A stretch of 15,991 nucleotides of DNA, taken from IMG/VR virus record IMGVR_UViG_2654588181_000004; one strand, written 5' to 3'. This document shows, one piece after another, positions 1,363 to 15,991 of the stretch (within the stretch, counting starts at the first letter, position 1; every line of letters starts with the position of its first letter). The stretch is from a virus. Taxonomy: Duplodnaviria; Heunggongvirae; Uroviricota; Caudoviricetes. The notes beneath the pieces were generated by a model. The model did not search any database, was not told the origin of the DNA, and saw only the letters and a list, made by a program, of their open reading frames with translations. Made by a program: the position numbers and the translations under genes.

Positions 1363-1395
1363 TTAATTTCGATTATTTTTCCCGGATGGAAAATT

Positions 1396-1446
1396 CTTAG
1401 AAACCGATCACATACAGCTGCATTTATTAAGGTTATCATCCGTTTC
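1396..1446 (+). promoter_or_regulatory. Probable cyaR promoter: CRP-like site (right half GATCACA at ~1406-1412, centred about 42 bp upstream of the RNA 5' end) and -10-like TATCAT at 1434-1439
   Basis: Seen in sequence: TCACA half-site with a weaker left half (TTAGA), and a -10-like hexamer 7 nt upstream of the putative cyaR 5' end. CyaR is known to be CRP-activated. Confidence 0.45.
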
Positions 1447-1533
1447 GCTGAAAAACATAACCCATAAAATGCTAGCTGTACCAGGAACCACCTCCTTAGC
1501 CTGTGTAATCTCCCTTACACGGGCTTATTTTTT
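1447..1533 (+). ncRNA. cyaR: CyaR (RyeE) Hfq-dependent small RNA; 3' terminator hairpin overlaps the prophage attachment core
   Basis: Sequence GCTGAAAAACATAACCCATAAAATGCTAGCTGTACCAGGAACCACCTCCTTAGCCTGTGTAATCTCCCTTACACGGGCTTATTTTTT matches my recollection of E. coli CyaR. It ends in a stem (GCCTGTGTA/TACACGGGC) plus T-run and lies between yegQ and ogr, as in E. coli K-12. Confidence 0.75.
1507..1533. repeat. Prophage attachment-site core, cyaR-proximal copy (attR-type), 27 bp AATCTCCCTTACACGGGCTTATTTTTT
   Basis: Exact 27-bp direct repeat of 15488-15514. It is the reverse complement of the P2 att core as I recall it (AAAAAATAAGCCCGTGTAAGGGAGATT). Confidence 0.8.
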
Positions 1534-1596
1534 ACGTACAACAAATTGAAATAAAAGGATTTATTTCTGGTCACGTCCACGCATTGACCACATCGA

Positions 1597-1623
1597 CAAA
1601 AAAAGCCCCTCGACTGAGGGGCT
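1597..1623 (-). terminator. Rho-independent terminator downstream of ogr (stem 1604-1611/1616-1623; U-run on minus strand from the A-run 1597-1603)
   Basis: Inverted repeat AGCCCCTC-GACT-GAGGGGCT followed by TTTTTTT on the minus strand, immediately 3' of the ogr stop. A weaker T-rich tract also follows it on the plus strand, so it may act in both directions. Confidence 0.6.
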
Positions 1624-1635
1624 TTCTGTTTGTAA

Positions 1636-1854
1636 TTACATCCACATAATTTGCTGCCCTGACGGCAACGGGTGCGGCCTCACGGCGTGGACTTCTCCCG
1701 GCTTCACGATGTATCGCTGTACCGACTCATAAGTGATGAACGTGGCGCTGCAATTCACGTTCTGACACTGGTGATAACGCTCTTTTGTCGTGTCAGTGAT
1801 ATAGCGGCTTGTACGCGCATGTGCGGCATGCTGGCATAAAGGACAATGAAACAT
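1636..1854 (-). CDS. ogr: P2 Ogr-type late-gene transcriptional activator (C4 zinc finger), 72 aa
   Basis: MFHCPLCQHAAHARTSRYITDTTKERYHQCQNVNC... carries the CxxC...CxxxxC zinc-finger pattern of the Ogr/Delta family. Start taken at the internal ATG (1854), not the upstream alternative start of the track ORF. Confidence 0.85.
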   Translation of the reverse strand: MFHCPLCQHAAHARTSRYITDTTKERYHQCQNVNCSATFITYESVQRYIVKPGEVHAVRPHPLPSGQQIMWM

Positions 1855-1935
1855 CGCGAGCACCTCTTCCGGTTTTGTTGATGGTGCCATTTTAGTCAAT
1901 TTATCCTTATAAAACAAACAGATAAACAAAACACA

Positions 1936-3099
1936 TCACTCATCATCTTCTGTTTCATACTCCACATCAGAAAGCCTGACCTCAAGTTCTAAGGACGTCG
2001 TGAAGCCGCTATTATTCAGAAAGTGAGTCACCTTAGTGATTGTCCAGTCCTGCTCGTCTATGACGCGCTTAAAGCCTGACACTTTAACTGGTGTTTCCGT
2101 GTAAATATCTGCCCGACCGGTAGCCAGGCTGATGGAGAACTCCGCCACACCCCGTTGCAGTTTATCCCACTTCGCCTGAGCGGCGCGCATGGCCTGCGCT
2201 TTCGTGGCATATACCGTGGTCAGGGCAAAAACGTTGTCAGCTTCACCGGCCATGTATTCACCTTCGCGCGCTTCCGGTACTTTTGGCGCTTTCTTCTGCG
2301 TGACTGGTTTCGCTTTCGGGTGCTCCAGTGCGCGCAGGTGTTTTTCTTTCTTTTTGCGTTTCAGTTTTACCTTCTGCTTTTGCGGCTTCGGGTCTTTGGT
2401 GTGAAGCCACTTTGCCGTTACGCCGGTATAGGCTCCACGGTCAGCAATCGCAAAATGGTGGCGGTCGCCGTCGCTGCGGGTTATGGTGACCTGCGGGATT
2501 TTTTTACCGCTGGCCGTCACCCCCTGCCCCGCTTTGAGAAACAACAGTTTTCCCATTTTTACCGAGACCTCACCGCCGTTGCGTTCTGCAAGACGGGTCA
2601 GGAATTTCGCATCAGACTCCTGCGACTGGTCGATGTGCGGAATTTTAATTCCGGCCAGTGACGGCGCGACACTGGCTTCCAGCCTGTTACGGGAGGCTAT
2701 CGCCTCAACAATCGCACCGAGCGTGGTGTCATGCCATGAGCCTTCCCGGCGGGAATTGAGCGTCCCGCGAAAATCTGCACTCCGGGCACGGATGGTGACC
2801 ACATCCGGCGCGCCCCGGTGTTCAACCTCATCAACGGTAAATTTCCCTTTGCATACCAGGGCAAAACCTTTCCAGCCGATATACACCGTCAGGACAGCGC
2901 CACGAACCGGCAGCCCGACCTGCCCGTCGGCATCGTTCAGTTCAATATCAAGCTGGTCAGCCTCAAAGCCCCGGTTATCCGTCAGGGTCATGCTCATCAG
3001 ACGGTCGCTGATATTGCCGGTAATATCCCTGCTGTCGAGCATCAGCATGTAATCCGGCGTCAGCGTACTGCCTGCATCAAATGTCAGCGTATCCAGCAT
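1936..3099 (-). CDS. D: P2 gpD-like tail protein (late control gene D), 387 aa
   Basis: 387-aa ORF, the same length as P2 gpD, directly upstream of ogr in the P2 gene order. Its ATG overlaps the stop of the upstream ORF (TAATG). Confidence 0.85.
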   Translation of the reverse strand: MLDTLTFDAGSTLTPDYMLMLDSRDITGNISDRLMSMTLTDNRGFEADQLDIELNDADGQVGLPVRGAVLTVYIGWKGFALVCKGKFTVDEVEHRGAPDVVTIRARSADFRGTLNSRREGSWHDTTLGAIVEAIASRNRLEASVAPSLAGIKIPHIDQSQESDAKFLTRLAERNGGEVSVKMGKLLFLKAGQGVTASGKKIPQVTITRSDGDRHHFAIADRGAYTGVTAKWLHTKDPKPQKQKVKLKRKKKEKHLRALEHPKAKPVTQKKAPKVPEAREGEYMAGEADNVFALTTVYATKAQAMRAAQAKWDKLQRGVAEFSISLATGRADIYTETPVKVSGFKRVIDEQDWTITKVTHFLNNSGFTTSLELEVRLSDVEYETEDDE

Positions 3100-5039
3100 T
3101 ATCCCGCCCCCGTCATACCCGTGAATTTAGTTGCCATACTGCCCGCCTTCAGCCCTTCAACCACACCGCCAAAGAATGCGCTGACAGGCTCCCAGTATTT
3201 ACGGATAAGTAACGCCCCGGCGACAATAGCGGCCACCACAGCCACAACCGGCCAGCTAATCGCCCCGATGGCGGTCATAACAGCACTGCCAACCGTCGTG
3301 AAGATTGCCCCCATTGCGCCTGCTGCCGCGATGATGGCATTAATGCCGGTGATAACCGGCCAGGCTACAAGACCAATTGCACCGATGATGCCAGTAAGCG
3401 CCAGTGCACCGCCAGCAATGATGCCGATGGTTGACGCCAGTGATTTGTTTTTCTGTATCCAGCCGTCGAGTTTTAACACATACTTTGTGGCCGTCTGCGT
3501 GAGATTACGCAGTGCGCCTTCCTGCTGGTCAAACAGGTCAGTCCCCACCGCCTCATAAGCGGACTGAAACTCTTTAAAGTCACCGCCTAGGTTGTCCTGC
3601 ATGATATTTACCAGCTCGGCGGTCTTCCCGTCTGAGGCTTTAAACGCAGCGGTCAGTTTGTCCAGCTTTCCGGTTGAGGCGGCAGTCATCAGCACGGCGG
3701 CGGCTGAGCTGGCTTCCTCCCCGAAAATGGTTTTCATGTATTCAGCCTGCTGGGCAGTACCGAGCCGGTTTTTCTCAAAACTGGCCTGCATTTCTTTCAG
3801 AATGGTAAATATTGGTCGGGTGTTTCCCTTGCTGTCTGAGGTTTTCACACCAAGCTCTTTGAGTGCATCCCATGCTTTTCCCGTCGGTGCCTGCAGGCGG
3901 CTTAACACGGCACGGCTTCCCGTCCCCGCCATTGAACCGGTAATTTTTGCATCATGCAGCGCCCCGACCATTGCGGCGGTTTCTTCAATGCTGACACCGG
4001 CATTTTTTGCCACAGGTGCGGCATAGGTCAGCGCATCGCTCATGCCGTCAAAATCGGCGGCGGTTTTGTTCATCGTCATGGAGAGAACATCCCCGATATG
4101 AGCGACCTTATCGTTTGAAAGCTGAAAGGCGGATTTCATCCCCATCAGCAGGGCGGCGTTTTCTTCCATCGTGCGACGGTTCGCCAGCGCCATATTCAGC
4201 GTGACCGGCGTTGCCGCCTGAATGGCATCAACATCCCCACCGGCTTTCGCAATGATAATCTGCGCACCGGCAGCATCATCCGCCGAGGCGGCTGTGTTGT
4301 CGCCGAGCTGGCGCGCCTGCTTGCGGAGTGCAGCCATTTCGGCGGAGTCTTTTGCCACACCGAGCACGGCCTGCAATTCTGAGTTTTTCTGCGCAAACTC
4401 ATAACCGGGCATCAGCAGCTTAACTCCGGCCATCGTTCCCGCCGCCGCAATCCCCACACCGGCAGCGCCCACTGAGGCCATATTTCCGGCCAGTTCCTTT
4501 CCTGCCTGATAACGCTGTTTGACTGCGTTAAGTTTTGCCTGTTGTGCACTGACACGCGCCAGCGCGTCACGCTGTCGGTTAAGCTGTGCGGTGGTTTCAC
4601 TGATACGGTTTTTCAGTCCCTGCTCATCATGTGCAAGATTGCGGGTATTAATTCCCACAACGGCCAGTTCCCGCTGCTGGCGTTTAACGGAATCCGTCAG
4701 GCGGTTATATTTCGCCTGTAAGTCCTCCGCCGCACGCTTTGCGGATTCCAGCAATTTCGCCTGAGCACGGGTCGGACGTTCGGTGTTTTTAAACTGTGTG
4801 GCAAGGGCTTCGGCCTCCTGCCGTGCCTTTTCAAGTGCATGACCAGTCACGGCGAGCTGTGCACTGGTCTTGCGGAATCCCTCAATACGGGATGCGTGAC
4901 CGTTCAGCTCGCGCAGTGATTTTTGTGTTTCCCGGATATCCCCCGACAGCGACTTGCTCGCTGTACGGATGGATTTAAACGGGCGGGATGCCTGGTCAAC
5001 AGCCCTGAGCAATACCTGTAATTTTACATTGTTACTCAT
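3099..5039 (-). CDS. T: Tail tape-measure protein, gpT-like, 646 aa; probably shortened at its C-terminus, with no separate gpU gene
   Basis: Long Ala/Gln-rich coiled-coil protein ending in a hydrophobic Gly/Ala-rich segment, encoded immediately after E+E'. P2 gpT is about 815 aa as I recall, followed by gpU; here the ORF stops at the D start codon. Confidence 0.7.
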   Translation of the reverse strand: MSNNVKLQVLLRAVDQASRPFKSIRTASKSLSGDIRETQKSLRELNGHASRIEGFRKTSAQLAVTGHALEKARQEAEALATQFKNTERPTRAQAKLLESAKRAAEDLQAKYNRLTDSVKRQQRELAVVGINTRNLAHDEQGLKNRISETTAQLNRQRDALARVSAQQAKLNAVKQRYQAGKELAGNMASVGAAGVGIAAAGTMAGVKLLMPGYEFAQKNSELQAVLGVAKDSAEMAALRKQARQLGDNTAASADDAAGAQIIIAKAGGDVDAIQAATPVTLNMALANRRTMEENAALLMGMKSAFQLSNDKVAHIGDVLSMTMNKTAADFDGMSDALTYAAPVAKNAGVSIEETAAMVGALHDAKITGSMAGTGSRAVLSRLQAPTGKAWDALKELGVKTSDSKGNTRPIFTILKEMQASFEKNRLGTAQQAEYMKTIFGEEASSAAAVLMTAASTGKLDKLTAAFKASDGKTAELVNIMQDNLGGDFKEFQSAYEAVGTDLFDQQEGALRNLTQTATKYVLKLDGWIQKNKSLASTIGIIAGGALALTGIIGAIGLVAWPVITGINAIIAAAGAMGAIFTTVGSAVMTAIGAISWPVVAVVAAIVAGALLIRKYWEPVSAFFGGVVEGLKAGSMATKFTGMTGAG

Positions 5040-5459
5040 TCGTGTTTCCGCTTCGCCGGAGCGCCTTTTCGCGCCATGTGATGAGTTCGGTCAGACTCAT
5101 GGGATACAGTTCTGATGGCGGCCAGTGAAATATCACTGCCACATCCGCCATCAGGTCATCGACCGACAGATTTTTCGGGAACGTCACTGCACCGAGTTCG
5201 GCGACAAAAAACCGACCACCTTACCGGCCAGCGCCACAAGGTCAGGCAGTTCCAGCGCGGCGACCTCCTGCTCGGTCAGCATCGGTGCCGTCATGCGCGG
5301 CAGCACTTTAATCAGTGCATCGACTTCGGAGTTTGCGACCGCAGCCAGACTGACACCGCGCAGCGTCCCGGCATTAGGTTTCATCAGCGTGACCTGTTCG
5401 ATAACCTGTTCACCACGTTTAACCGGATTATCCAGGGTAATGACGTTTTCTTTGTTCAT
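5032..5459 (-). CDS. gpE+E' -1 frameshift fusion product, predicted 142 aa
   Basis: Reading the -1 frame after the TTTTTTG site gives a 57-codon open extension (VAELGAVTFPKNL...RRSGNTNE) ending at a TAA that overlaps the T start. 85 + 57 = 142 aa, matching the P2 E+E' length as I recall it. Confidence 0.6.
5184..5459 (-). CDS. E: P2 gpE-like tail assembly chaperone, 91 aa (zero-frame product)
   Basis: 91-aa ORF between FII and T, the same length and position as P2 gpE. Contains the T6G slippery site near its 3' end. Confidence 0.85.
   Translation of the reverse strand: MNKENVITLDNPVKRGEQVIEQVTLMKPNAGTLRGVSLAAVANSEVDALIKVLPRMTAPMLTEQEVAALELPDLVALAGKVVGFLSPNSVQ
5205..5211 (-). other. Programmed -1 ribosomal frameshift slippery heptamer T TTT TTG (E to E+E')
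   Basis: Minus-strand sequence GGTCGGTTTTTTGTCGCC. Heptamer position and an open -1 frame are both seen in the sequence. Analogous to the lambda G/GT and P2 E/E' frameshift. Confidence 0.6.
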
Positions 5460-5515
5460 GGTTTTCTCACTTCTGAATCGGGGTTAACCGGTCAGCCAGG
5501 CTGACCGGATGAAAA

Positions 5516-6034
5516 TCACAGGCCGATATTGCGGCGGTGTTGCTCCAGCCGGTCGACGCCGTTCACCTTCTCAATCATGTTGATGGTGTCGATTTCGACC
5601 AGCTCCTTACCGTCCATCGTCAGCCGGAAATAGGTGCAGACCACGGAGATTTTCGACTCGGTGTCTTCTCCTTGTTTACCCTCGCCGGTGTCGATTTCTT
5701 TCTGACGGCCACGCATGACCACCTCGACGGCCACCGTTTCGCCGGTATCGTCGCGCTGGTAAGAGCCTGCAAAACGAATCGGCACAGCATCCACACCGGT
5801 TGCGGCGTAAAGCTCCCAGATAACCGAATCCGGGAAGCCCCCGAGCGACCACTCCATTGACAGCGCATCGTCATCAAGGCCGAGGTCTACCGGTGCGCTG
5901 CCGTTCATCCCCGCACCGCGATAGTTTTCGAGCTTACGGGTCAGTTTTGGCAGCGTGACGGACTTTGCAACGCCCTGATAGCTGTAGCCGTTCAGAAAGA
6001 CGTTCATTAACTTGAGTTTGCGCGGCATTGCCAT
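5516..6034 (-). CDS. FII: P2 gpFII-like tail tube protein, 172 aa
   Basis: 172-aa ORF, the P2 FII length, located between the FI remnant and E. Confidence 0.85.
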   Translation of the reverse strand: MAMPRKLKLMNVFLNGYSYQGVAKSVTLPKLTRKLENYRGAGMNGSAPVDLGLDDDALSMEWSLGGFPDSVIWELYAATGVDAVPIRFAGSYQRDDTGETVAVEVVMRGRQKEIDTGEGKQGEDTESKISVVCTYFRLTMDGKELVEIDTINMIEKVNGVDRLEQHRRNIGL

Positions 6035-6046
6035 CGGTCAGGCTCC

Positions 6047-6490
6047 TTAATTGCTGTTAACCGAGGTGACCAGATTTGCCAGGTATTTATCGGTAATACG
6101 CTGGCGCAGGGTCAGGTTTTCGAGAGGAGGCACCGGTGTATAGTCGTAGTCGATATACAGTTTTCCGGCCTTGAGGGTTTCCGCATCGTTGGATTCTTCG
6201 CTGAACCAGCATGAGCCATCCACTATATAGCCGTTTGTTTTCAGCTCACGGAATTTGGCATTGATGCCGTCAACGATGTCGCGAATCAGCGTTGCGGTGA
6301 TGGGCTTGTCCACCGCCCACATGTGCGCCTCAGCCATCGTGTCGGCCAGCACCTGCGCGGTGCGGGTGTAGTTTTCAAAGAGGAACAGCGGGTCATCAGA
6401 GCAGGTACGGTTACCCCAGAAGCGGAAACCGTCGCGGCGAATCAGCGTTGTGACGCCTGACTCATTAAGCAGGTCAGCATCGGTGTCCGC
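6047..6490 (-). pseudogene. FI: Tail sheath gene FI, 3' fragment only (about 150 C-terminal codons); 5' portion deleted
   Basis: Reading frame is open upstream of the track ORF up to about 6505 with no start codon (…[59 protein letters not shown]…). It then collides with an unrelated plus-strand frame. A full sheath protein would be about 390 aa. Confidence 0.7.
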
Positions 6491-6595
6491 AATGAGCTTA
6501 TCCCGTTACAGGACAGGATCCGCGAGATAAACGGCTGGCTCGGTCAGGAGGTCATCCGCTTTAAAAACTACTCACTGGACACTGACAACGGCTGA
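6491..6595 (+). pseudogene. Probable 3'-terminal fragment of the portal/capsid gene Q (…LQDRIREINGWLGQEVIRFKNYSLDTDNG*)
   Basis: Short open frame ending at TGA 6593-6595, followed by a terminator and then the cos site about 170 bp downstream. This is where the 3' end of Q lies in P2. The exact junction with FI (about 6460-6510) cannot be fixed without a reference. Confidence 0.4.
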
Positions 6596-6600
6596 ACATC

Positions 6601-6622
6601 GCCGCCTGCGGGCGGCTTTTTT
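6601..6622 (+). terminator. Rho-independent terminator (GCCGCC-TGCG-GGCGGC + TTTTTT)
   Basis: Perfect 6-bp GC stem, 4-nt loop and a T6 run directly after the Q-fragment stop. Confidence 0.65.
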
Positions 6623-6764
6623 GCACCCCGTCATCACGCCCTCACACGCTCACCACCGCACAAAACACCCCGCAGACACACCAACGCCACGGCGCACAAT
6701 CTAAACGCCATCACGACGCGCTGAGACGCTGAAAAAATAAAATCAGCACCACCGCCAGCGCGCA

Positions 6765-6783
6765 GTGCTTTCCCCGCCTCGCC
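6765..6783. other. P2-type cos site (19-nt cohesive end), present as the reverse complement GTGCTTTCCCCGCCTCGCC
   Basis: Reverse complement equals GGCGAGGCGGGGAAAGCAC, which I recall as the P2 cohesive-end sequence. Flanking sequence also resembles the P2 left end. Confidence 0.7.
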
Positions 6784-7087
6784 CGCCCGCTTCATGGGGC
6801 GGTTTTAATGCAGTTGCATGATGAAACTGAAATCACATCAGCACTGACCGAAACTGACAAAAAGAATAGTATCTGACACATGCAAAAACACGCACTTAAT
6901 ATACGCCTATCTATAGCTCCTACAGGATTGTCAAAAAACGACCAACTCGTCATAGCGTAAACACATTTGGCTCAACGAACACTTACGTTATATGCCTCTT
7001 GCACATATCAAAGTCTTAAGGTAGATCTTTACCACTAAGTGGCTATATTAAGCTGCTTTTTTACATACAATAAAAGCTTTATCGTAT

Positions 7088-7091
7088 GAGG
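7088..7091 (+). promoter_or_regulatory. Shine-Dalgarno GAGG, 7 nt upstream of the ATG of the 738-aa ORF; an AT-rich putative promoter region lies at about 6990-7080
   Basis: GAGG followed by CATAAAA then ATG. The upstream 300 bp is AT-rich with several -10-like hexamers (for example TATATT at 7044-7049), none assigned with confidence. Confidence 0.45.
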
Positions 7092-7098
7092 CATAAAA

Positions 7099-9315
7099 AT
7101 GGAACTTAGATTAAAAAATGTTACCAGTTATAAGAAAGACGCCTTCACAATACTGAATCTTGAAAAAAGAGTAAACATACTATACGGCCAAAATGGTTGT
7201 GGCAAATCTACCATTTCAAATTATTTCTACGACTCTACACACACAGATTATAACGAGTGTGAATGTACCCTTCTTGACAATTACAAACCTCTTGTTTACA
7301 ACACTAAATTTATTGAAGATAATTTCTACAATGCACAGGAACAAAAAGGTGTTTTTACATTAAGTAAAGAAAATGCAGATATTGAAAAACAATTAATTGA
7401 AAAAGAAGCAATTAAACAGCAACTTACAGAGCAATATAGACAAAAAAAAGGAGTGTTATTGAAATTAGAAGCAGAAATGGAAAAAAAAGAAAATGAATAC
7501 ATCGAATCGATCTGGAAAAAAACAGAACCAATCAGAAACTCTGTACTAAAAACCTTAATGAAAGGTAAAGTTGGCTATAAAAGACCTTTTTTTGAGATGA
7601 TAAAATCATCCTCACCAATCACCTTTATTAATTTAAATGATATAGCAAAAGAATACTCTATACTATTAGAAAATAGAAACAATGAAACCGCATTAATAAC
7701 TCCTTTACATCCATATACCCCATCAATTGATGATGTAAATACATTAGCAACACCTATAATAGATACAAGCAATAGCTATTTATCAGAAACCATTAATAAA
7801 CTTCATAATCTTGACTGGGTAAAAAAAGGTAAAGAACATTATTTAGACGGTTCTACATGTCCGTTTTGTCAGGAAAAAACTATTAGTCACGAATTTTTAA
7901 ATGCCCTTAAATCAATATTTGACGAAAGTTATTCAAAGAAAGTAAAACAGCTCTCAGATATAAAGTCAGTTTATGAGAAAAATACCATATATCATTTTAA
8001 CGAAATACAAAACAATATATCATCATGTGCACTAATCAATGAGAAAGATAAAGAGATCATTATTTCCAATATTAAAATATTGCAAAACATTGCAGAAAAA
8101 AATTTAATAAACATTATTGATAAGATCAACAATCCATCAACATGCGTTACATTAGAAATTGATAAAGAACTAGAAAATCATGTTCAGGAAAGCATAGACG
8201 CTGTTAACAAAAAAATAAGAGACATAAATGATAAGGTTAAAAAACTCAAAGAGTATGAGAATAAAATCGGAAAACAAGTTTGGGGGGCTCTCCATGCTTT
8301 TTGCAGCGATGATTTAGAGAATTTATCCAAACACAAAGAAAAATTCTTTGATATCAAAAAGAAAGTTCATGATGAATTAAATAATATTGAGCAACAAGGA
8401 AAAGAAAATAATCTCACAATAAAAGCATTGCGAGATAAAATATCTAACATTGATTCTACGATAGACTCAATAAACACCCATTTAAAAAATCTAGGGATCT
8501 CTGGTTTTTGTATTGAAAAACATGCAGAAAGAAAAGATATGTACATTATATCTCGACCAGGGCATACAAAAAACCAAAATGTTTATAGATCTCTTAGCGA
8601 AGGTGAAAAAACACTAATAACGTTTCTTTATTTTTTAGAGTGCTGTAAAGGTAAAACCGATAAAAATGATACCGATAGCAGGGATATTTTTATTGTTATT
8701 GACGATCCAATATCTAGTCTATCGCAAAACTATGTCTACGACATCGCATCAATTATTCATCACCACATTATAAAAAATGAATCAACAAAGAAGGTATTAA
8801 TCCTTACTCACAATCTTTATTTCTTTCATGAACTTATTAAGCTATCTCCTAAAAGCAGAGAAGACAAACTATTTAAGAAAAACTATTATCTAGGTAGAGT
8901 AACGAAAAATTATTTTAGTATAATTACTGAAATACAAAAAAACAGCATACAGAATGAATATCAATCTTTGTGGCAAATATTAAAAGATGCAAAAGATGGC
9001 AAAGCAAACAAAATCATAATACCTAATATTATGAGAAACATACTAGAATATTATTTTGCATTTGTTCATAGAACAGATGCTCTACAAGATGAATTAACAA
9101 AGTTGGCACGCGACGATAGCAACAGTGATTTCAAAGCATTCTACAGATACATTAACAGAGGTTCTCACTCTGATGCGGTAAATATTACTGATATGGGCGA
9201 CATAGACCCAGATAAATACCTAAAACAATTGAGAACAATATTTTCAGCTACTGGTGACGAAATGCATTATTTAAAAATGATGGACGAACTAGAAGAGGAG
9301 AACGTTACCGCTTAG
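7099..9315 (+). CDS. RloC/PrrC-like protein: ABC (Rad50/SMC-like) ATPase with coiled-coil insert and CxxC hook, plus a small C-terminal HEPN-like nuclease domain; candidate abortive-infection anticodon nuclease
   Basis: 738-aa ORF with a good SD. Walker A GQNGCGKST (aa 30-38), K/E-rich coiled-coil stretches, CPFC (aa 254-257), ABC signature-like LSEGEK (499-504), Walker B DIFIVIDDP (529-537), H-loop LILTHN (567-572). C-terminal R646-x3-E650 and R683-x6-H690 resemble the PrrC/RloC R-E-H residues. Strongly AT-rich compared with the flanking prophage genes. Confidence 0.6.
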   Translation: MELRLKNVTSYKKDAFTILNLEKRVNILYGQNGCGKSTISNYFYDSTHTDYNECECTLLDNYKPLVYNTKFIEDNFYNAQEQKGVFTLSKENADIEKQLIEKEAIKQQLTEQYRQKKGVLLKLEAEMEKKENEYIESIWKKTEPIRNSVLKTLMKGKVGYKRPFFEMIKSSSPITFINLNDIAKEYSILLENRNNETALITPLHPYTPSIDDVNTLATPIIDTSNSYLSETINKLHNLDWVKKGKEHYLDGSTCPFCQEKTISHEFLNALKSIFDESYSKKVKQLSDIKSVYEKNTIYHFNEIQNNISSCALINEKDKEIIISNIKILQNIAEKNLINIIDKINNPSTCVTLEIDKELENHVQESIDAVNKKIRDINDKVKKLKEYENKIGKQVWGALHAFCSDDLENLSKHKEKFFDIKKKVHDELNNIEQQGKENNLTIKALRDKISNIDSTIDSINTHLKNLGISGFCIEKHAERKDMYIISRPGHTKNQNVYRSLSEGEKTLITFLYFLECCKGKTDKNDTDSRDIFIVIDDPISSLSQNYVYDIASIIHHHIIKNESTKKVLILTHNLYFFHELIKLSPKSREDKLFKKNYYLGRVTKNYFSIITEIQKNSIQNEYQSLWQILKDAKDGKANKIIIPNIMRNILEYYFAFVHRTDALQDELTKLARDDSNSDFKAFYRYINRGSHSDAVNITDMGDIDPDKYLKQLRTIFSATGDEMHYLKMMDELEEENVTA

Positions 9316-9564
9316 GCCGCATATTATCGTTTTGGGTAAGAACGACGGTGCTTACGCACCGTCTCCCAACGCCCAAAGCGGTAGCGGTTGTACTGGCGTA
9401 CATTCACTAGCTTTAACATGAGGCAATCTCCATGCCAGCACTATTGTTGCCAATAGCAGCCTTTATACCCTTTGTACAAAGCTAATACCAAGAGTAATGC
9501 AAAGTAGATGTCCCAAGCGGTAACGGGGCTATTCTATGTCAAACACAGAAAAAATCAAAGCACC

Positions 9565-11829
9565 CTATGAATCCCCCCAACCATCAGCGACCGGATACGT
9601 GAATTTTTTCCCGTCATAATTTACGGTCGCTCCACGCGCCAGCGCCTCAAGCTCCCATCGCTGCGGCCTGATACCGTTCTGAGCAAGGTCAACGCGGATA
9701 CGGGTGATTTGCAATCGTTCAGACCTGGTCAGTCTGGCAGATGGTGCAATTTCATGCGGTTTTAACGGGCTTCCGTTTCTTTGCTGACGGTTTGGCGTTC
9801 TCAGGTCGTATTTTAATGCGCCCCTGAGCGCCCTCACGACCTCCGGTTCATTCCATTCAATAACACCGTCATCAACCAGATTAAGCACTGCTGCGGCGTG
9901 CTCAGAAGGTGTGGGAGCCGGTAACGAAGTATCACCACCGGTGAGCTTTCCACAGTTATTGACAGGACTCCGAGGCGCGGCGATGCCGCTTTTTAAAGTC
10001 AAAGGCTCAACGACCGGAACTTTCGGAACAATGCGCCAGTCCGTCGTTCTGGTGATATGAATATGACGCGCGCCGAGATGCGGCGCGTAAATGCCGACCA
10101 CTCTCTCGACTTCTTCCTCGTACTCGTTAACTTCATCCGACGGACTACGGGCAACCCTGACAGTCTGACAATCGCGCGGAACATTTGCCCCACCCTGCGC
10201 GCTGATATACAACGCAAAATCACCACTGTCTGCGGCGGCGCGTGCAGCCTCGACGCGTTCGTCAAACTCATCAGCAATGCTGACGCCGCGAGGCAATTTG
10301 CGTAGTTCACGGTAAGCGCCCATTGTCGGCAGGCCAACCGTTTTAAATTGCGGGATACGCCACGTTGACGCCCATGCGGTAACAGCCGCTGCAGTGTCTT
10401 TCAGCGGCCTGCCGGTATCGTTATCGAGCTGACCATCCAGTGCATAGCCGTCGATATTTTTTGAGATGTATTTTGCGATATATCCCGCAGCACCGCCCCG
10501 GTTAAGGTGTTTTGCCTGAAAACGGTTTCGCGCGGCTCCTCTTTCGTTACCATCCTCTTTGAGCGCATAGCGACGCATGATTTCGATAATCTGGTTACGC
10601 TGGCGTGGATTACAAAAAAGCATCATATGCCAGTGCGGCGTTCCGTCGTGGTGTGGCTCGACGACACGCAAACCGTAGACCTGTAAATCATTATCCTTGA
10701 ATGCCGTGCGCATCAGGCTCCAGATACGGCAGAGATAACGCTGCGCATCCTTCGGATTAAATGCCTCATCGTTCCAGCCGTGATTAAGCTGGACGGTTTT
10801 ACTTTCTCCTTTTCCGACCTGACGTGTCGGGTGATACTTTGACGGCGTGGTCAGCGTGATAAACATCCCCACATCACCCTCTGCGGCGGCGTAACGCTCA
10901 ATACCGGCAATGGTGTTCATCAGCTCCATCCGGCGAATTTCAGGATTAGAAATACTGCCCATCACCTTACTGATAAGGTCGATGCGCTCGCCGGTTTCCC
11001 TGTTTTCAAGGTCACATGATTTAAGAAACTCCAGATTTGCCTGGCGGCGCGCACGCACATCACGAATGGCATGTTTACTGGCATAAGGAGAACGGTCTTT
11101 ATTGACCTCCCCGACAGCAATCAGTAACGCCTCATGCCAGCGCATGCGCTGGCCTTTAAGCTGATGAGTCCACCACTCATCGTTAAACAGACGGGCAATG
11201 GCAGAATATGCCTGCCTCGTGGTCATCTGTCCTTTACGGTATTTTTTCCAGTAGAGAGGGGAAATATTGAAAGCTCGTGCAGCGCCAGCAACATGACCAT
11301 ACAGGTGATCCTGAGCCTCATCCGTAAACAGTGATTCTTTTTCGCCATGCGCATCCACCCAGGCATCGCTGAGTTCCTCATACATCATGAAAAGCTGCGA
11401 TGAGATACGGGCGGCAAACTTTTTCAGCTCCTTGTCATTCATTCCCGGCAGGCGCGCATAGTGGTCACGCTCTGCCAGAAACAGCAACGACGCGTCGGTG
11501 TTCATTTCATGGCGCTGATTCACACGCTCAATGCGCGGCCATAAACGACGCTGAAAAGTGGATGTGAGGAAATAAAACCCGTGTACCGGGCTTTTATTGC
11601 GCCTGATGTAGTCATAGCGTGAAGTAAACAGCGAGCGCAAAAAGTAAGGCAGGCGGTTAATCGTGGATAAAACACCTTGCACCTGACGCATCTCATCACG
11701 TGTAAGAGGTCTTTCGCGCCCGACAGCCTCGCGTGGCGCGTTCCATGCATAAGCACCGGTAAACATCTTACCGGTGCCTGCGGCAAATGCTGACGGAGGG
11801 ACAAAACGCCCGGAGGCTTTAACGGCCAT
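9565..11829 (-). CDS. A: P2 gpA-like rolling-circle replication initiator (HUH endonuclease)
   Basis: HUH motif (PHWHMMLF) and catalytic tyrosine motif (GYIAKYISKNIDG). The N-terminus MAVKASGRFVPPSAF... matches my recollection of the P2 A start; the track ORF extends 14 codons further upstream from a TTG (to 11871), which I consider less likely. Confidence 0.8.
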   Translation of the reverse strand: MAVKASGRFVPPSAFAAGTGKMFTGAYAWNAPREAVGRERPLTRDEMRQVQGVLSTINRLPYFLRSLFTSRYDYIRRNKSPVHGFYFLTSTFQRRLWPRIERVNQRHEMNTDASLLFLAERDHYARLPGMNDKELKKFAARISSQLFMMYEELSDAWVDAHGEKESLFTDEAQDHLYGHVAGAARAFNISPLYWKKYRKGQMTTRQAYSAIARLFNDEWWTHQLKGQRMRWHEALLIAVGEVNKDRSPYASKHAIRDVRARRQANLEFLKSCDLENRETGERIDLISKVMGSISNPEIRRMELMNTIAGIERYAAAEGDVGMFITLTTPSKYHPTRQVGKGESKTVQLNHGWNDEAFNPKDAQRYLCRIWSLMRTAFKDNDLQVYGLRVVEPHHDGTPHWHMMLFCNPRQRNQIIEIMRRYALKEDGNERGAARNRFQAKHLNRGGAAGYIAKYISKNIDGYALDGQLDNDTGRPLKDTAAAVTAWASTWRIPQFKTVGLPTMGAYRELRKLPRGVSIADEFDERVEAARAAADSGDFALYISAQGGANVPRDCQTVRVARSPSDEVNEYEEEVERVVGIYAPHLGARHIHITRTTDWRIVPKVPVVEPLTLKSGIAAPRSPVNNCGKLTGGDTSLPAPTPSEHAAAVLNLVDDGVIEWNEPEVVRALRGALKYDLRTPNRQQRNGSPLKPHEIAPSARLTRSERLQITRIRVDLAQNGIRPQRWELEALARGATVNYDGKKFTYPVADGWGDS

Positions 11830-12094
11830 ATGAGCCAAAAGCCTCTGAACAACGCCTGCTGAGTTGCTCAACCTGCGCGTTTAAATCAGCAAAAGACTTT
11901 GCGCTTCCGGTCAGAATATCGTGATGCATCAGGCCGGAAACGAGCTGGCTTAATTTCGGGTAATAACCAACCACCGCCAGCCATTCCTGACCGGCGTTTT
12001 TACCGCTTTCCGCTCTCTTTTTCTCGTGGAGAATAAACTGAAAGCTGTCACTGGTAACGACATAACGTTCGCCAATTTCAATACGAATACTCAT
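11819..12094 (-). CDS. Small early-region protein, unknown function (P2 orf83-position)
   Basis: 91-aa ORF in an overlapping, co-oriented string between B and A; stop overlaps the A start. Confidence 0.55.
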   Translation of the reverse strand: MSIRIEIGERYVVTSDSFQFILHEKKRAESGKNAGQEWLAVVGYYPKLSQLVSGLMHHDILTGSAKSFADLNAQVEQLSRRCSEAFGSYGR

Positions 12095-12315
12095 GCCGTT
12101 CTCCGGTAATGTTTGTTTTTTGCTTCAAAGACTGACTGACAGGAAACACAACGCGTGGCTGACGGGTAAGCCGCACGACGGGCAGCAGGTATTGGCGCGT
12201 CACACTCTTCGCAAACCAGCGCAGAAGCACCGCAATGTTTTACCCTTGCCGCGTTAATCTGGCGCTCCAGTAATTCAGCCTGTTGTTCCTGAATAAAATC
12301 TACGTTGTCCGGCAT
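12091..12315 (-). CDS. DksA/TraR-family C4 zinc-finger protein (P2 orf82-position)
   Basis: 74 aa with CEEC...x17...CVSC (Cx2C-x17-Cx2C); start overlaps the stop of the upstream ORF (ATGA). Confidence 0.65.
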   Translation of the reverse strand: MPDNVDFIQEQQAELLERQINAARVKHCGASALVCEECDAPIPAARRAAYPSATRCVSCQSVFEAKNKHYRRTA

Positions 12316-12317
12316 TA

Positions 12318-12620
12318 TCAGCTCCTTTTATCGTTAAGTTTCCTGGATACATCAGCGCAATAACTGGCAAGCTCTGTCGTTAATTTTGTCAGTTCATCCA
12401 CTGAGGAAATTTGCTTGTGGAATACAGCGCGTTTAACAAGTAAATTGACCACATCAGACAGGAGGTTTAATTCATTCTGATAAATCGCGATAACAGATTC
12501 AGTTATGTCGCGTTTTTCTTTATCAAGGCAAAGTTGAATAAGAGACAAATCGCCATTTTTCATAACGGCGATTTTTAAGGCGTTATTCAGTAATACAACT
12601 GAATGAGAACAGGACATCAA
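12318..12620 (-). CDS. Small early-region protein, unknown function (P2 orf81-position)
   Basis: 100-aa ORF, co-oriented and tightly packed with neighbours; locally more AT-rich than the flanking genes. Confidence 0.5.
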
Positions 12621-12874
12621 AGCACCTCCCCGCGAGACAATCCGATATTGTGAAATTTTTCCGACTCCTGACTGAGCAGCTCGACTATCTCCACGCGGGA
12701 TAACTCCGCCTTTGTGATATGGCGAATCATGGCGTCAAGATGAGAAGAAAAGCGTGTCGCTGCGTCGGCCTGTGCTTCGGTTCTGGCCTGTTGCAGCAGT
12801 AATGCGTATTTACCGCACTGATTTTCAGAAACTGTATGCATGACTTTCTCCAGGCAAAAAGAAGCCCCGCACAA
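12617..12874 (-). CDS. Small early-region protein, unknown function (P2 orf80-position); true start may be the internal Met
   Basis: 85-aa ORF whose stop overlaps the next start (ATGA). Confidence 0.45.
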
Positions 12875-12904
12875 TTAAGTGCGTTAAAAACTCTGGTTAA
12901 TTAC

Positions 12905-13405
12905 TTAATGCAGATATTGCTCTGGTTTTACCGACGTCAGAATTGTCGGTGCATACTCAAACAGGCTGAACAATTCACGTAATGCACGGAATAAAGCATC
13001 ACGCCAGTAACATGATTCTTCATTAATTCGCCAGTATGGCTGGTTGAATTCTTTTTCAGTCAATCCGGCATGCATAAATAAAGTACGACGCTGACTGACT
13101 GTTAAAAAACTAATATATGCATACTCACTTGCGCCAACCTGACGGCGTTTTGAGAATGCCCCACGCAATTCATCAATTGCGCAAACCAGCCGTTCACGTT
13201 CGACGTCGTTCATTTCTTCAAAACGCATCGTTGCGTGACGCTGTTTTAACTGCGCATGGAAGCAAACCGTTAGCCGTTCGCGTTCCATCATCTGATTATA
13301 ATAATCGCATGTCTCCTGCCAGCGAGGGACGGCCAGATGCTTACCAATTATCCGGCGCATAGCTGCTGGCTGTTTTTCAACGAGATTGAGCGTCATCACT
13401 GTCAT
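12905..13405 (-). CDS. B: P2 gpB-like replication protein (helicase-loader-like), 166 aa
   Basis: 166 aa, the P2 gpB length, between cox and the small ORFs preceding A. Confidence 0.8.
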   Translation of the reverse strand: MTVMTLNLVEKQPAAMRRIIGKHLAVPRWQETCDYYNQMMERERLTVCFHAQLKQRHATMRFEEMNDVERERLVCAIDELRGAFSKRRQVGASEYAYISFLTVSQRRTLFMHAGLTEKEFNQPYWRINEESCYWRDALFRALRELFSLFEYAPTILTSVKPEQYLH

Positions 13406-13572
13406 TTCCAGACCCTCCGGCTTTTCAGAAAGGTCAGAGCCTTTTTTAACGGACTCTGTTTTTTGGTGCGGATAATGATTCCCTTACGCCCCTTACCGTG
13501 GGTGATGGTGAAGTCAATCGCCCTGGGGCTTTCGTTACGCAATAACTGAGCAATACAACGAGGCTCATTCAT
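13402..13572 (-). CDS. Small basic protein (P2 orf78-position); start taken at the internal ATG
   Basis: The track ORF (13402..13596) overlaps the cox 3' end by 14 nt; the internal Met gives a 56-aa product starting just after the cox stop. Confidence 0.4.
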   Translation of the reverse strand: MNEPRCIAQLLRNESPRAIDFTITHGKGRKGIIIRTKKQSPLKKALTFLKSRRVWK

Positions 13573-13582
13573 ACGGTTCTCC

Positions 13583-13858
13583 TTAACGTGGTTCACCGAG
13601 ACCTAACCACATCAACCAGCCGTCACGAATCTCTTTAGGACGGCTTTCATAAGCCAGTTTTAGTCCGTTATTCCATGCCGGAAGGTATACCCAATATTCA
13701 CCAGCACGCCCCGATACTGACTGAGGGTCAGTAATCTCAATAACTGGTAATTTCCCTTTCTCAATCATGCCCCTTACAGCTCTTGGAGTTTTGCCAATGA
13801 GTTTTGCAAACTCCTGATAAGGCACGGCATCAGTCACGCTTACAAGCTGTCTATTCAT
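13583..13858 (-). CDS. cox: P2 Cox-like excisionase/early repressor (HTH), 91 aa
   Basis: 91 aa, the P2 Cox length, divergent from the C repressor gene and first gene of the cox-B-A operon; HTH-like segment FAKLIGKTPRAVRGMIEKGKLP. Confidence 0.75.
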   Translation of the reverse strand: MNRQLVSVTDAVPYQEFAKLIGKTPRAVRGMIEKGKLPVIEITDPQSVSGRAGEYWVYLPAWNNGLKLAYESRPKEIRDGWLMWLGLGEPR

Positions 13859-13880
13859 CTGCTACGATTCTCCCTTAGTG

Positions 13881-13901
13881 CTTCTAATGGCTCCTAATGG
13901 C
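13881..13901. promoter_or_regulatory. Tandem direct repeats (T/C)CTAATGGCT x2 in the cox/C intergenic switch region; candidate C-repressor operator half-sites at the early promoter
   Basis: Two 10-bp tandem copies seen in the 121-bp cox-C intergenic region. P2 C repressor is known to bind direct repeats flanking the -10 of the early promoter. Confidence 0.4.
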
Positions 13902-13979
13902 TAATTATTGCCTAAAAGGATAACTCCAGAAGCACAACATTTCATACCATCAGCAAGAAATTACGCAATCGGAGTAATT

Positions 13980-14279
13980 ATGTCAATAGACGTTTCGGAG
14001 AAGTTGAAGCTAATCCGTGAATCTGAAAGGTTAAACCGTAAAGAATTCAGTGAATTAACTGGTGTAGCCTACAGCTCACTTTCGAGCTATGAGAGCCGGT
14101 CAAAAAACGCTGGAGTTGAAGCCATAATGAAGGTCTTACAACATCCTAGATTTACTAAATATACTTTGTGGTTCATGACTGATCAGGTAGCTCCAGAAGC
14201 CGGGCAAATTGCGCCCGCTCTCGCACACTTTGGGCAAAACGAAACAACGTCGCCCCACTCCGGTCAAAAGACTGGTTAA
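13980..14279 (+). CDS. C: P2 C-type immunity repressor, 99 aa
   Basis: MSIDVSEKLKLIRESE...TKYTLWFMTDQVAPEAGQIAPALAHFGQNETTSPHSGQKTG closely resembles the P2 C protein as I recall it. Start taken at the internal ATG, giving the canonical 99 aa. Confidence 0.85.
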   Translation: MSIDVSEKLKLIRESERLNRKEFSELTGVAYSSLSSYESRSKNAGVEAIMKVLQHPRFTKYTLWFMTDQVAPEAGQIAPALAHFGQNETTSPHSGQKTG

Positions 14280-14394
14280 CAATTTATCGTGAATATATTC
14301 ATCACAAGTGCCTACTATTGGTGGCTAAATTTCAGCCACCACGAAAAAAGCGATTAGTAGTAGCAAAAAAAAGTACCACTCGGAGGGTTTTCTG

Positions 14395-15408
14395 ATGGCA
14401 ATCAAAAAACTCGATGATGGTCGATATGAAGTGGACATCCGCCCTACTGGACGTAACGGAAAACGCATCCGTAGGAAGTTTGATAAGAAAAGCGAAGCTG
14501 TCGCTTTCGAAAAATACACGTTGTACAACCACCACAATAAAGAATGGCTATCAAAACCAACAGACAAACGACGTCTGTCGGAACTGACACAGATCTGGTG
14601 GGATTTAAAGGGTAAACACGAAGAGCATGGGAAATCTAATCTTGGAAAAATTGAAATCTTCACAAAAATAACGAATGACCCATGCGCATTTCAAATCACG
14701 AAATCCCTTATCAGCCAGTACTGCGCCACCCGAAGAAGTCAGGGTATTAAACCTTCGAGTATCAATCGTGATTTAACATGTATTAGCGGCATGTTTACAG
14801 CCCTGATTGAAGCGGAGTTATTCTTTGGTGAGCACCCTATCAGAGGGACAAAGAGGCTTAAGGAGGAAAAACCAGAAACAGGCTATCTCACACAGGAAGA
14901 AATTGCCTTACTGCTTGCAGCACTTGACGGCGACAATAAAAAGATTGCGATTCTTTGCCTGAGTACAGGAGCACGTTGGGGAGAAGCAGCTCGTTTGAAA
15001 GCAGAAAATATCATCCATAACCGCGTCACATTTGTTAAAACGAAAACAAACAAACCACGCACCGTCCCGATCTCAGAGGCTGTTGCCAAAATGATCGCGG
15101 ATAACAAACGAGGTTTTTTATTCCCTGATGCTGATTACCCTCGCTTCAGACGAACAATGAAAGCAATAAAACCGGATTTGCCAACGGGGCAAGCCACACA
15201 TGCACTAAGGCACAGCTTTGCCACTCATTTCATGATTAATGGAGGAAGTATTATCACGCTACAACGGATACTAGGTCACACGCGGATTGAGCAAACTATG
15301 GTTTACGCTCATTTTGCGCCAGAGTACCTTCAGGACGCCATTTCTCTTAATCCGCTAAGAGGTGGTACTGAGGCCGAGAGTGTCCACACAGTGTCCACAG
15401 TAGAGTAA
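14395..15408 (+). CDS. int: P2-type tyrosine integrase, 337 aa
   Basis: 337 aa, the P2 Int length, with tyrosine-recombinase catalytic motifs (HALRHSFATHF; LGHTRIEQTMVYAH). Adjacent to the att core at the prophage end. Confidence 0.9.
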   Translation: MAIKKLDDGRYEVDIRPTGRNGKRIRRKFDKKSEAVAFEKYTLYNHHNKEWLSKPTDKRRLSELTQIWWDLKGKHEEHGKSNLGKIEIFTKITNDPCAFQITKSLISQYCATRRSQGIKPSSINRDLTCISGMFTALIEAELFFGEHPIRGTKRLKEEKPETGYLTQEEIALLLAALDGDNKKIAILCLSTGARWGEAARLKAENIIHNRVTFVKTKTNKPRTVPISEAVAKMIADNKRGFLFPDADYPRFRRTMKAIKPDLPTGQATHALRHSFATHFMINGGSIITLQRILGHTRIEQTMVYAHFAPEYLQDAISLNPLRGGTEAESVHTVSTVE

Positions 15409-15487
15409 CGTTTAAGGGCTTTCAGTGGTAATTTATGCCGCTCAAACCCGCATTGTACCGTTGAAAGCCCCTACTGGTGACACCCTA

Positions 15488-15514
15488 AATCTCCCTTACA
15501 CGGGCTTATTTTTT
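15488..15514. repeat. Prophage attachment-site core, int-proximal copy (attL-type), 27 bp AATCTCCCTTACACGGGCTTATTTTTT
   Basis: Exact direct repeat of 1507-1533, located about 80 bp downstream of the int stop. Confidence 0.8.
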
Positions 15515-15673
15515 TATGCATAAGCCCTATCTCTGGTAACCGTCTTCCATTGACCACATCGATAGAATCCTCCTTCATAGCACGATGCCTTTCACTTATC
15601 GGCATCGTGCTCCCACAGGTTCCGGCTACGCACAGCCAGAACGCGCATATTTGACGCTTACCAAAAAATATTC

Positions 15674-15991
15674 TCACTCTCCACATTTGAATGTCAGACG
15701 AGCGACACCATGTAATCCTACACCTTCTGTCTTCAGCTCAACTATTTGCATTTTTTTGCCCTGAGTAACACAGAAATGAGTTGCATCATTTTTTACTATA
15801 TTTTCTGCACCAGATATTCTACCCCTGGCTAAAGAAGCTTCGGCTTCGGTGTAGTATTGGTTATCGAGTTTACGCTGAATATTACTTTTATATGCAAGAC
15901 CAAATTTACCGATACTTGTCTCATCATTATGCACAGCACAACCAGACATAATAAAAATACTAATTAATGATATAGCAGCTATCTTTTTCAT
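15674..15991 (-). CDS. yegR: Small putative lipoprotein YegR, 105 aa (signal peptide with lipobox-like SGC)
   Basis: MKKIAAISLISIFIMSGCAV... is a typical lipoprotein signal. 105 aa and position after the P2 remnant match my recollection of E. coli yegR. The start codon is at the last base of the window. Confidence 0.6.
   Translation of the reverse strand: MKKIAAISLISIFIMSGCAVHNDETSIGKFGLAYKSNIQRKLDNQYYTEAEASLARGRISGAENIVKNDATHFCVTQGKKMQIVELKTEGVGLHGVARLTFKCGE

Follow-up and report, generated by a model that had tools for sequence, protein, structure and literature searches.

Is a 14-kb P2-like element that carries a defence gene a satellite-like island mobilised by helper phages, or is it a prophage in the course of decay? 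The question is raised by a virus-derived DNA sequence of 15,991 nucleotides (IMG/VR record IMGVR_UViG_2654588181_000004; the whole stretch is hereafter referred to as the window), in which an element of 14,008 bp occupies positions 1507-15514. A preliminary description of this sequence had pointed to the retained cos, integration and replication functions and had proposed a defence island that a P2-like helper could excise, replicate and package. We report here that the element is very probably a young, private and defective P2-like (Peduovirus) prophage at cyaR, truncated in one bacterial lineage by two illegitimate deletions.

The element is integrated at a bacterial site and its attachment (att) core is duplicated inside the 3' end of cyaR. 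The ogr-side core (1507-1533) and the int-side core (15488-15514) are exact direct repeats of 27 bp and match the attP core of P2 throughout (28/28 against the annotated core site of P2), so that the boundaries given in the preliminary description were exact. With 42% of the length of the P2 genome (NC_001895, the P2 reference used throughout), the element shows collinear P2 homology across the att, early/replication, cos and tail regions. Positions 1507-3149 correspond to P2 24382-22741 (att, ogr, D and the last 50 nt of U), 3143-6485 to P2 21746-18404 (T codons 1-632, E/E', FII and the last 146 codons of FI), 6484-6783 to P2 298-1 (the last 37 codons of Q, the tQ terminator and cosL), 6765-6812 to P2 33593-33546 (cosR), 9569-13836 to P2 30295-26027 (A through cox) and 14150-15514 to P2 25720-24356 (part of C, int and att). 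Between these blocks lie a cargo region with no P2 match (6813-9568) and an immunity region that has diverged from P2 (13837-14149). The four large aligned blocks share 96.6-98.1% DNA identity with P2 and the segment with the Q fragment and cosL 94.3% (blastn), while protein identities are 84-100% with the exception of C (65%), the orf78-83 and B products ranging from 89 to 100%.

Compared with full-length relatives, this collinear arrangement is interrupted by exactly two gaps, deletions of 18.1 kb and 1,001 bp, and it is this finding that supports the reading as a truncated prophage. Both junctions were mapped exactly against undeleted relatives of 99.9% identity. The larger deletion corresponds to P2 299-18403 and its junction lies at 6484/6485 with a 2-bp microhomology, GT (the sequence spanning the junction is GGTCAGCATCGGTGTCCGCAATGAGCTT). 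It removed most of the portal gene Q, the terminase genes P and M, the capsid genes O, N and L, X, the lysis genes Y, K and lysABC, the tail completion genes R and S, orf30, the baseplate and fibre genes V to G, Z/fun and the first 250 codons (the N-terminal two thirds) of the sheath gene FI. Every P2 late promoter (P2 3016-3127, 10239-10308 and 17555-17628) falls within the deleted interval. At 3148/3149 the smaller deletion, again with a 2-bp microhomology, fused T(1-632) in frame with the final 14 codons of U. As each junction shows just 2 bp of microhomology, the deletions are illegitimate, being neither repeat-mediated nor site-specific. With P2 299-18403 and 1,001 bp of T/U missing the prophage is defective, and its sequence shows that it can neither build particles nor lyse the cell.

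The window is 100% identical to the 533-kb contig FNIS01000001.1 (assembly GCA_900103855.1, labelled Shigella sonnei). As this source is a draft assembly, the deletions could be imagined as collapses or mis-joins concealing a full-length prophage, and the different closest relatives of the two arms, described below, are what a chimeric join might give. The chance of such an artefact is negligible in our judgement: the separate Logan assembly of run SRR4218895 (contig L005) is 100% identical to window 1-6787 and hence reads identically through both junctions, the smaller deletion gives a clean in-frame fusion, the joined sequences share 2 bp only and thus offer no repeat for an assembler to collapse, and comparable deletions are found in closed genomes. 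The two assemblies probably derive from the same isolate. The Logan contig stops at window 6787, 4 nt beyond the cos sequence; this may be a graph branch caused by a second cos-bearing element (P2-like or P4-like) or, equally, poor coverage of the cargo gene with its GC (guanine plus cytosine) content of 29%.

What remains of the late region occupies 1936-6595, or about one third of the element, most of it on the minus strand. The tail gene D (1936-3099, -; 387 amino acids) is full length, its product being 99.0% identical to P2 gpD and free of mismatches to that of the strain 401651 prophage. It is followed by the in-frame fusion of the tape measure gene T to the end of U, T(1-632)-'U (3099-5039, -), by the frameshift pair of tail assembly genes E and E' (5032-5459, -; E 90/91 against P2, with Pfam Phage_TAC_7 and Phage_P2_GpE in the gene calls of the source contig) and by the full-length tail tube gene FII (5516-6034, -; 172/172). 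A C-terminal fragment of the sheath gene FI of 146 codons (6047-6485, -) ends at the 18.1-kb junction, where the last 37 codons of the portal gene Q begin (6484-6595, +; blastn match to P2 298-1), followed by the tQ terminator (6601-6622, 22/22 match). The late-gene activator gene ogr (1636-1854, -; 72 amino acids, 72/72 against P2 Ogr) and its terminator (1602-1625, 24/24) lie at the outer end of this arm. The earlier statement that structural and lytic functions were lost is accurate for the virion and lysis block, but D, FII and E/E' persist at full length and the T-U fusion and the FI and Q fragments persist beside them. Because the late promoters were deleted, including that of the F operon, these tail genes appear to be promoterless passengers and are probably silent. 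A tailocin-like or domesticated tail module was also considered and was rejected, since sheath, baseplate, fibres, U and the late promoters have been lost and T is truncated.

The other modules escaped the deletions. The preliminary description had listed cos, A with its origin, B, int, cox, C and ogr as retained, and all of them are present and intact; it had also proposed an alignment with P2 as a check on int, cox and A, which all three genes passed, as they match wild-type alleles. The integrase gene int (14395-15408, +) encodes a tyrosine integrase of 337 amino acids (336/337 against P2 Int). At the ogr side, the attachment region contains an IHF site and an Int P-arm site (1532-1596, -; 33/34 and 27/28 against the annotated P2 sites), and at the int side the P' arm site and the Cox boxes adjoin the core (15374-15471, -; 27/27 and 74/74). 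The 19-nt cohesive-end sequence at 6765-6783 is the exact reverse complement of the P2 cohesive end GGCGAGGCGGGGAAAGCAC (19/19), and the flanks of cos are 99.4% identical to the full-length prophage of OkiPb01681 (contig L002). The rolling-circle replication initiator A (9565-11829, -; 754 amino acids from the annotated ATG) matches P2 A at 742/751 residues (98.8%), the last few residues differing as they do in a full-length sibling prophage, and the nick region of the origin within A (9941-10001) is unchanged (61/61). The genes orf83, orf82, orf81, orf80, B and orf78 (11819-13572, -) are all full length at 89-100% identity to P2, with B at 12905-13405 (-; 164/166).

The immunity region is of another type. 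The repressor gene C (13980-14279, +; 99 amino acids) is full length and of a non-P2 immunity type, with 64/99 residues (64.6%) in common with P2 C, and cox (13583-13858, -; 91 amino acids), encoding the excisionase and Pc repressor, is full length with 76/91 (83.5%) and a Pfam Phage_Cox match. The region is 99.5% identical to that of the isolated phage vB_EcoM-720R8. The divergence from P2 at 13837-14149 covers the N-terminus of C, the Pe/Pc operators and the N-terminus of cox. As the Cox boxes are 74/74 identical, the sequences suggest that the two Cox types, that of the element and that of P2, share the same att-proximal sites.

The near relatives of the two arms show that the element comes directly from ordinary full-length prophages and indicate how young the deletions are. 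In strain OkiPb01681, the site is occupied by a complete P2-like prophage with this 738-amino-acid cargo; over window 6484-15991 the two sequences share 99.4% identity, and the Int, Cox, C, B and orf78-83 proteins show no difference. For the left arm, the nearest counterpart, at 99.9% identity, is the full-length prophage of strain 401651, which has a different cargo and P2-type immunity; here the two agree at every residue of Ogr, D, E and T(1-632), with a single residue changed in FII. A protein identical to A was found on 184 contigs and one identical to the cargo protein on 71. Since the retained genes bear no private lesions, the deletions must be very recent.

The two arms thus differ in their closest relative, with 1535-6483 nearest to 401651 and 6484-15991 at 99.4-99.8% identity to OkiPb01681 and KOr024, and the change of relative falls at the 18.1-kb deletion. 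The element derives either from a recombinant phage or from two heteroimmune prophages in tandem, FI of one having been joined to Q of the other by loss of the intervening DNA.

The cargo gene at 7099-9315 (+), noted already in the preliminary description, encodes a 738-amino-acid RloC-like ABC ATPase and candidate anticodon nuclease. It replaces old/tin/orf91 of P2, and its region (6813-9568), lying between cosR and A, corresponds to the P2 hotspot between A and Q/cos, which was defined in PMC9122126 and is also described in PMC13586616. The protein matches PADLOC PDC-S06 (E=3e-254) and Pfam AAA_13 (E=8e-111), with a weaker match to PADLOC PrrC over residues 490-730; PADLOC lists PDC-S06 only as a candidate family. 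Its ATPase motifs comprise a Walker A (GQNGCGKS, residues 30-37), a signature motif (LSEGE, 499-503) and a Walker B (FIVIDD, 531-536), the insert between Walker A and the signature carries the CxxC zinc-hook motif CPFC at 254-257, and the C-terminal triad reads R646-x3-E650-x39-S689-H690. RloC has been defined as an ABC ATPase with a zinc-hook insert and an Arg-X3-Glu-X36-52-His motif in which a Ser often precedes the His (PMC2610378). The motif set fits this definition, which makes the cargo a credible candidate for an RloC-like anticodon-nuclease defence gene.

Further searches with the cargo protein gave no match among PDB sequences and nothing informative in NCBIfam, and in the deposited phage collection the sole match was a partial one of 79% in an Enterobacter phage. 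Around the cargo gene, promoter-like sites were not above the expectation from shuffled sequences, while seven terminator-like sites were found against a shuffle mean of 2.3; tQ is the one known terminator and we leave the others uninterpreted. No convincing additional gene was seen among the small open reading frames in the gaps between cos and cargo and between cargo and A. Within the window, the hotspot boundary lies in the last ~10 codons of A. In the related elements of PE15 (L006 12401-14419) and FG92-1 (L008 12440-14458), the annotation has A cut short at codon 673, the point where another cargo of the hotspot starts; the boundary can therefore fall about 80 codons inside A, downstream of the origin.

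How widely the truncated form is distributed was assessed by searching 5,426 complete E. coli genomes with 201-bp queries across each junction, a match being counted at a coverage of at least 80%. Neither junction was present in any of these genomes, while each half of the junction queries matched roughly 1,600-1,700 of them. A 28-mer across the 18.1-kb junction, present in the window as a positive control, was absent from a metagenome collection (241 M records) and from IMG/VR (2.9 M viral contigs). The T-U fusion protein is recorded in one NCBI assembly and one Logan run only, i.e. in one isolate, so that the element does not form the conserved lineage expected of a satellite. The K-12-type junction at the same locus was found in 356 of the 5,426 genomes, as one would predict for a remnant passed down vertically within a lineage. 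The smaller K-12 remnant (ogrK and a D fragment) to which the preliminary description had compared the window is indeed present at cyaR; the suggestion that the window is an earlier stage of the same decay is sound as to site and process, but K-12 acquired its remnant through a distinct event that became fixed in its lineage.

Independent derivatives with other deletions occur at the same locus, which further supports the interpretation as a decaying prophage. In PE15, a deletion runs from FII' to P' and the cargo is different; in FG92-1, FI' is joined to P', D, U and the 3' end of T are also lost and the cargo is a SIR2 gene. The same RloC-like cargo is carried by L3452210II, in which FII' is joined to P', and by 700481, in which V' is joined to P' with an additional H/J deletion; the junctions of these two were each found in one genome only. 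The element of 38A23CPO011 has lost cos, the cargo and nearly all of A. A contig from IMG/VR (L013) has kept Q, cos, cargo and A and has lost orf82 to C and the N-terminus of int, its flank also matching the yegR side of the window, and a more distant relative from IMG/VR (L016) has several deletions and a frameshifted D. The closed genomes NZ_CP076527.1 and NZ_CM129038.1 contain independently truncated same-cargo prophages at the same locus, and their chromosome records begin at the first base of A, probably because a rotation tool took A for the replication start gene.

Among the derivatives whose junctions were searched, mini derivatives with cos arise repeatedly and none was seen twice. 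All derivatives were found by ranking matches on their coverage of the window, which favours those that keep both arms, and for this reason we draw no conclusion from their apparent recurrence. Selection for mobility as the cause of this recurrence was considered and rejected in view of the ranking bias, the two tested derivatives being singletons, and the loss of A and cos or of int, cox and C in others. As 38A23CPO011 and L013 have lost A with cos or cox/C/B with part of int, the mobility modules do not seem to be specially protected.

The same comparisons bear on whether the element is an actively domesticated remnant, in which the cargo, and perhaps the immunity provided by C, is selected, the capsid and lysis genes are selectively purged and the retention of int, A and cos is incidental. 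Loss of the central capsid and lysis block with retention of the hotspot cargo has happened repeatedly in independent events, the cargo proteins of intact and defective elements differ by only 4-5 mismatches in 738 residues, and a like pattern has been reported (PMC13586616). However, the element is too young to reveal purifying selection because all its retained genes are still wild type, the three derivatives with junctions searched were each confined to one genome and so give no sign of long-term retention, and the search favoured derivatives with both arms. We therefore regard domestication as possible but unlikely here, and in any case it would refine the explanation as a recently truncated prophage and would not exclude it.

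The proposal that the element is a 14-kb satellite-like island spreading its RloC-like gene with the aid of a helper deserves a fuller account. A heteroimmune P2-like superinfector would supply Cox/Int and all virion proteins, replication would start from the element's own A and origin, and after cutting at cos the element would be packaged as a monomer or dimer and would reintegrate at cyaR of a new host. The element indeed has its own integrase and att sites, its own initiator and origin and a cos site that a helper terminase would be expected to recognise. Its int, cox, C, A, B and ogr are full-length wild-type alleles, the cis sites are conserved (Int P arm, IHF, core, Cox boxes, P' arm, origin and cos), and a P2-type Cox may act at the Cox boxes, as these are identical to those of P2 though the element's own Cox differs. 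Potential helpers are common, with P2-like prophages in roughly 30% of complete E. coli genomes. Sub-genome-length cos DNA can also be packaged: P4 cosmids of 5-8 kb were transduced as monomers (PMC2231350), P4 sid mutants are packaged into P2-size heads in two or three copies (PMC4936722, PMC6893505), and two copies of the element would amount to 28 kb, or 83% of P2.

Against this stand the features that led us to set the proposal aside. Both junctions occur in a single isolate, with no second genome or site and no metagenome or viral contig carrying the 18.1-kb junction, and the two other cos-positive same-cargo mini derivatives are singletons as well. The element is not streamlined, as orphan tail genes totalling 4.5 kb are still present along with three gene fragments. 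Apart from the cargo every open reading frame is a P2 orthologue, and no anti-repressor, capsid-size, interference or other helper-exploitation gene is present. Other decay products at the locus have lost A and cos or cox, C and int. Packaging efficiency is known to fall when the size of the DNA mismatches the capsid (PMC9942202, PMC6893505). A search of the literature on the cis action of P2 A and on minimal cos requirements returned no usable open-access source. The C repressor of P2 is not SOS-inducible and its A protein acts preferentially in cis, so that a helper would be expected neither to derepress nor to replicate the element. An island of this kind is, on balance, improbable.

A more modest form of rescue is a separate matter. 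Because int, cox, the att sites, A with its origin and cos are wild type, occasional rescue by a heteroimmune P2-like helper would be physically possible: the helper Int (99.7% identical) and Cox could act on the att sites of the element, and the helper terminase could recognise its cos. Such an event would be the classical rescue of a defective prophage; it is conceivable and, on the comparative signals, unsupported. We consider it improbable that young P2 deletion derivatives with cos, int and A are, as a class, transduced at low frequency by heteroimmune helpers, maybe as dimers of about 28 kb, and reintegrate at cyaR.

We return to the reading of the element as a recently truncated prophage. 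In the lysogen, to judge from its intact gene, the C repressor would keep the early operon silent and would provide immunity to homoimmune P2-like phages, and the cargo would be active as a defence gene of the lysogenic-conversion type, read from the cos side in the direction of A like old in P2, with the leftover tail genes presumably silent for want of a late promoter. Two points weigh against this account. The integration, excision, replication and packaging functions are completely intact, which is what a mobilisable element needs and somewhat more than a random remnant must keep; and several independent same-cargo derivatives keep cos, A and cargo, although the search ranking favoured such derivatives. 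In its favour, beyond the two gaps and the differently deleted derivatives, defective P2 prophages that keep near-identical defence genes have already been described (PMC13586616). We regard the element as a random stage, caught at one moment, in the decay or domestication of a prophage rather than as something shaped for helper-dependent transfer.

The bacterial flanks of the element are ordinary. Positions 1-1362 are yegQ/trhP and 15674-15991 are yegR. The gene for the small RNA CyaR (RyeE) lies at 1445-1530 (+) and is full length (Rfam RF00112, 100.7 bits), being the sole match in an Rfam scan of the window; a tRNA scan of the window found none, hence the att site is not a tRNA. Because the CyaR gene ends within the att core, its last ~24 nt and its T-run are supplied anew by the prophage end, and neither integration nor decay here disrupts the small RNA. 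An open reading frame of 71 codons (15471-15686, -) crosses the int-side core and the intergenic region before yegR and is probably spurious.

The value of the locus lies in its being a clean and datable case of very early prophage decay, with two deletions and every retained gene wild type. Here, a defence cargo in the P2 hotspot has outlived the ability of its phage to make particles, an example of the already reported way in which hotspot defence genes can become part of the chromosome. Helper rescue, if it were shown, would be one more minor means of transferring defence genes, a concept covered by classical defective-prophage rescue; if low-frequency transduction did occur, such derivatives would be transient proto-satellites that let defence cargo travel in the absence of a viable phage and might mark the beginning of satellite evolution.

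Set beside known systems, the cargo resembles RloC (PMC2610378) in its ABC ATPase motifs, its CxxC hook in a long insert and its Arg-X3-Glu-X39-Ser-His arrangement, and it remains a candidate member of that group, PDC-S06 being a candidate family. The element as a whole is an ordinary member of the described class of defective P2 prophages with conserved defence genes (PMC13586616). Like those that keep the hotspot, it has P2 core markers, lacks virion functions and carries between A and Q/cos a gene near-identical to that of intact prophages; those prophages lack mobility or virion functions, whereas in this element the early, integration and cos modules are all intact, the late genes alone are lost, and a single isolate is concerned.

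The cryptic prophage PR-X of K-12 (ogrK and yegZ) shares the cyaR site and the orientation and has kept ogr and the 3' end of D, at 97.5% identity over window 1-2150. In MG1655, the order cyaR, ogrK, D fragment (PR-X) and yegR equals window 1-2150 joined to 15497-15991. K-12 has thus lost the DNA from D through the int-side core (window 2151-15496) by a junction that is fixed in its lineage, whereas the junctions of the window are unique.

Defective transducing prophages of the lambda dgal and dbio type are rescued by a helper. The element resembles them in having cos, integrase and excisionase, repressor and replication genes without a complete set of virion genes, so that particles could arise only via a helper, either co-resident or superinfecting. 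They are near full phage length, in contrast to an element of 42% of P2, and P2 differs from lambda in being non-inducible and in having a cis-acting A.

With satellite phage P4 and its relatives the element shares its small size and integrative nature, a P2-compatible cos, a defence hotspot and the reliance on P2 virion proteins. P4, unlike the element, encodes an unrelated primase, possesses the helper-exploitation genes epsilon, delta, sid and psu and has no P2 structural remnants, and its 11.6-kb genome is matched to a small capsid and is found in thousands of conserved copies.

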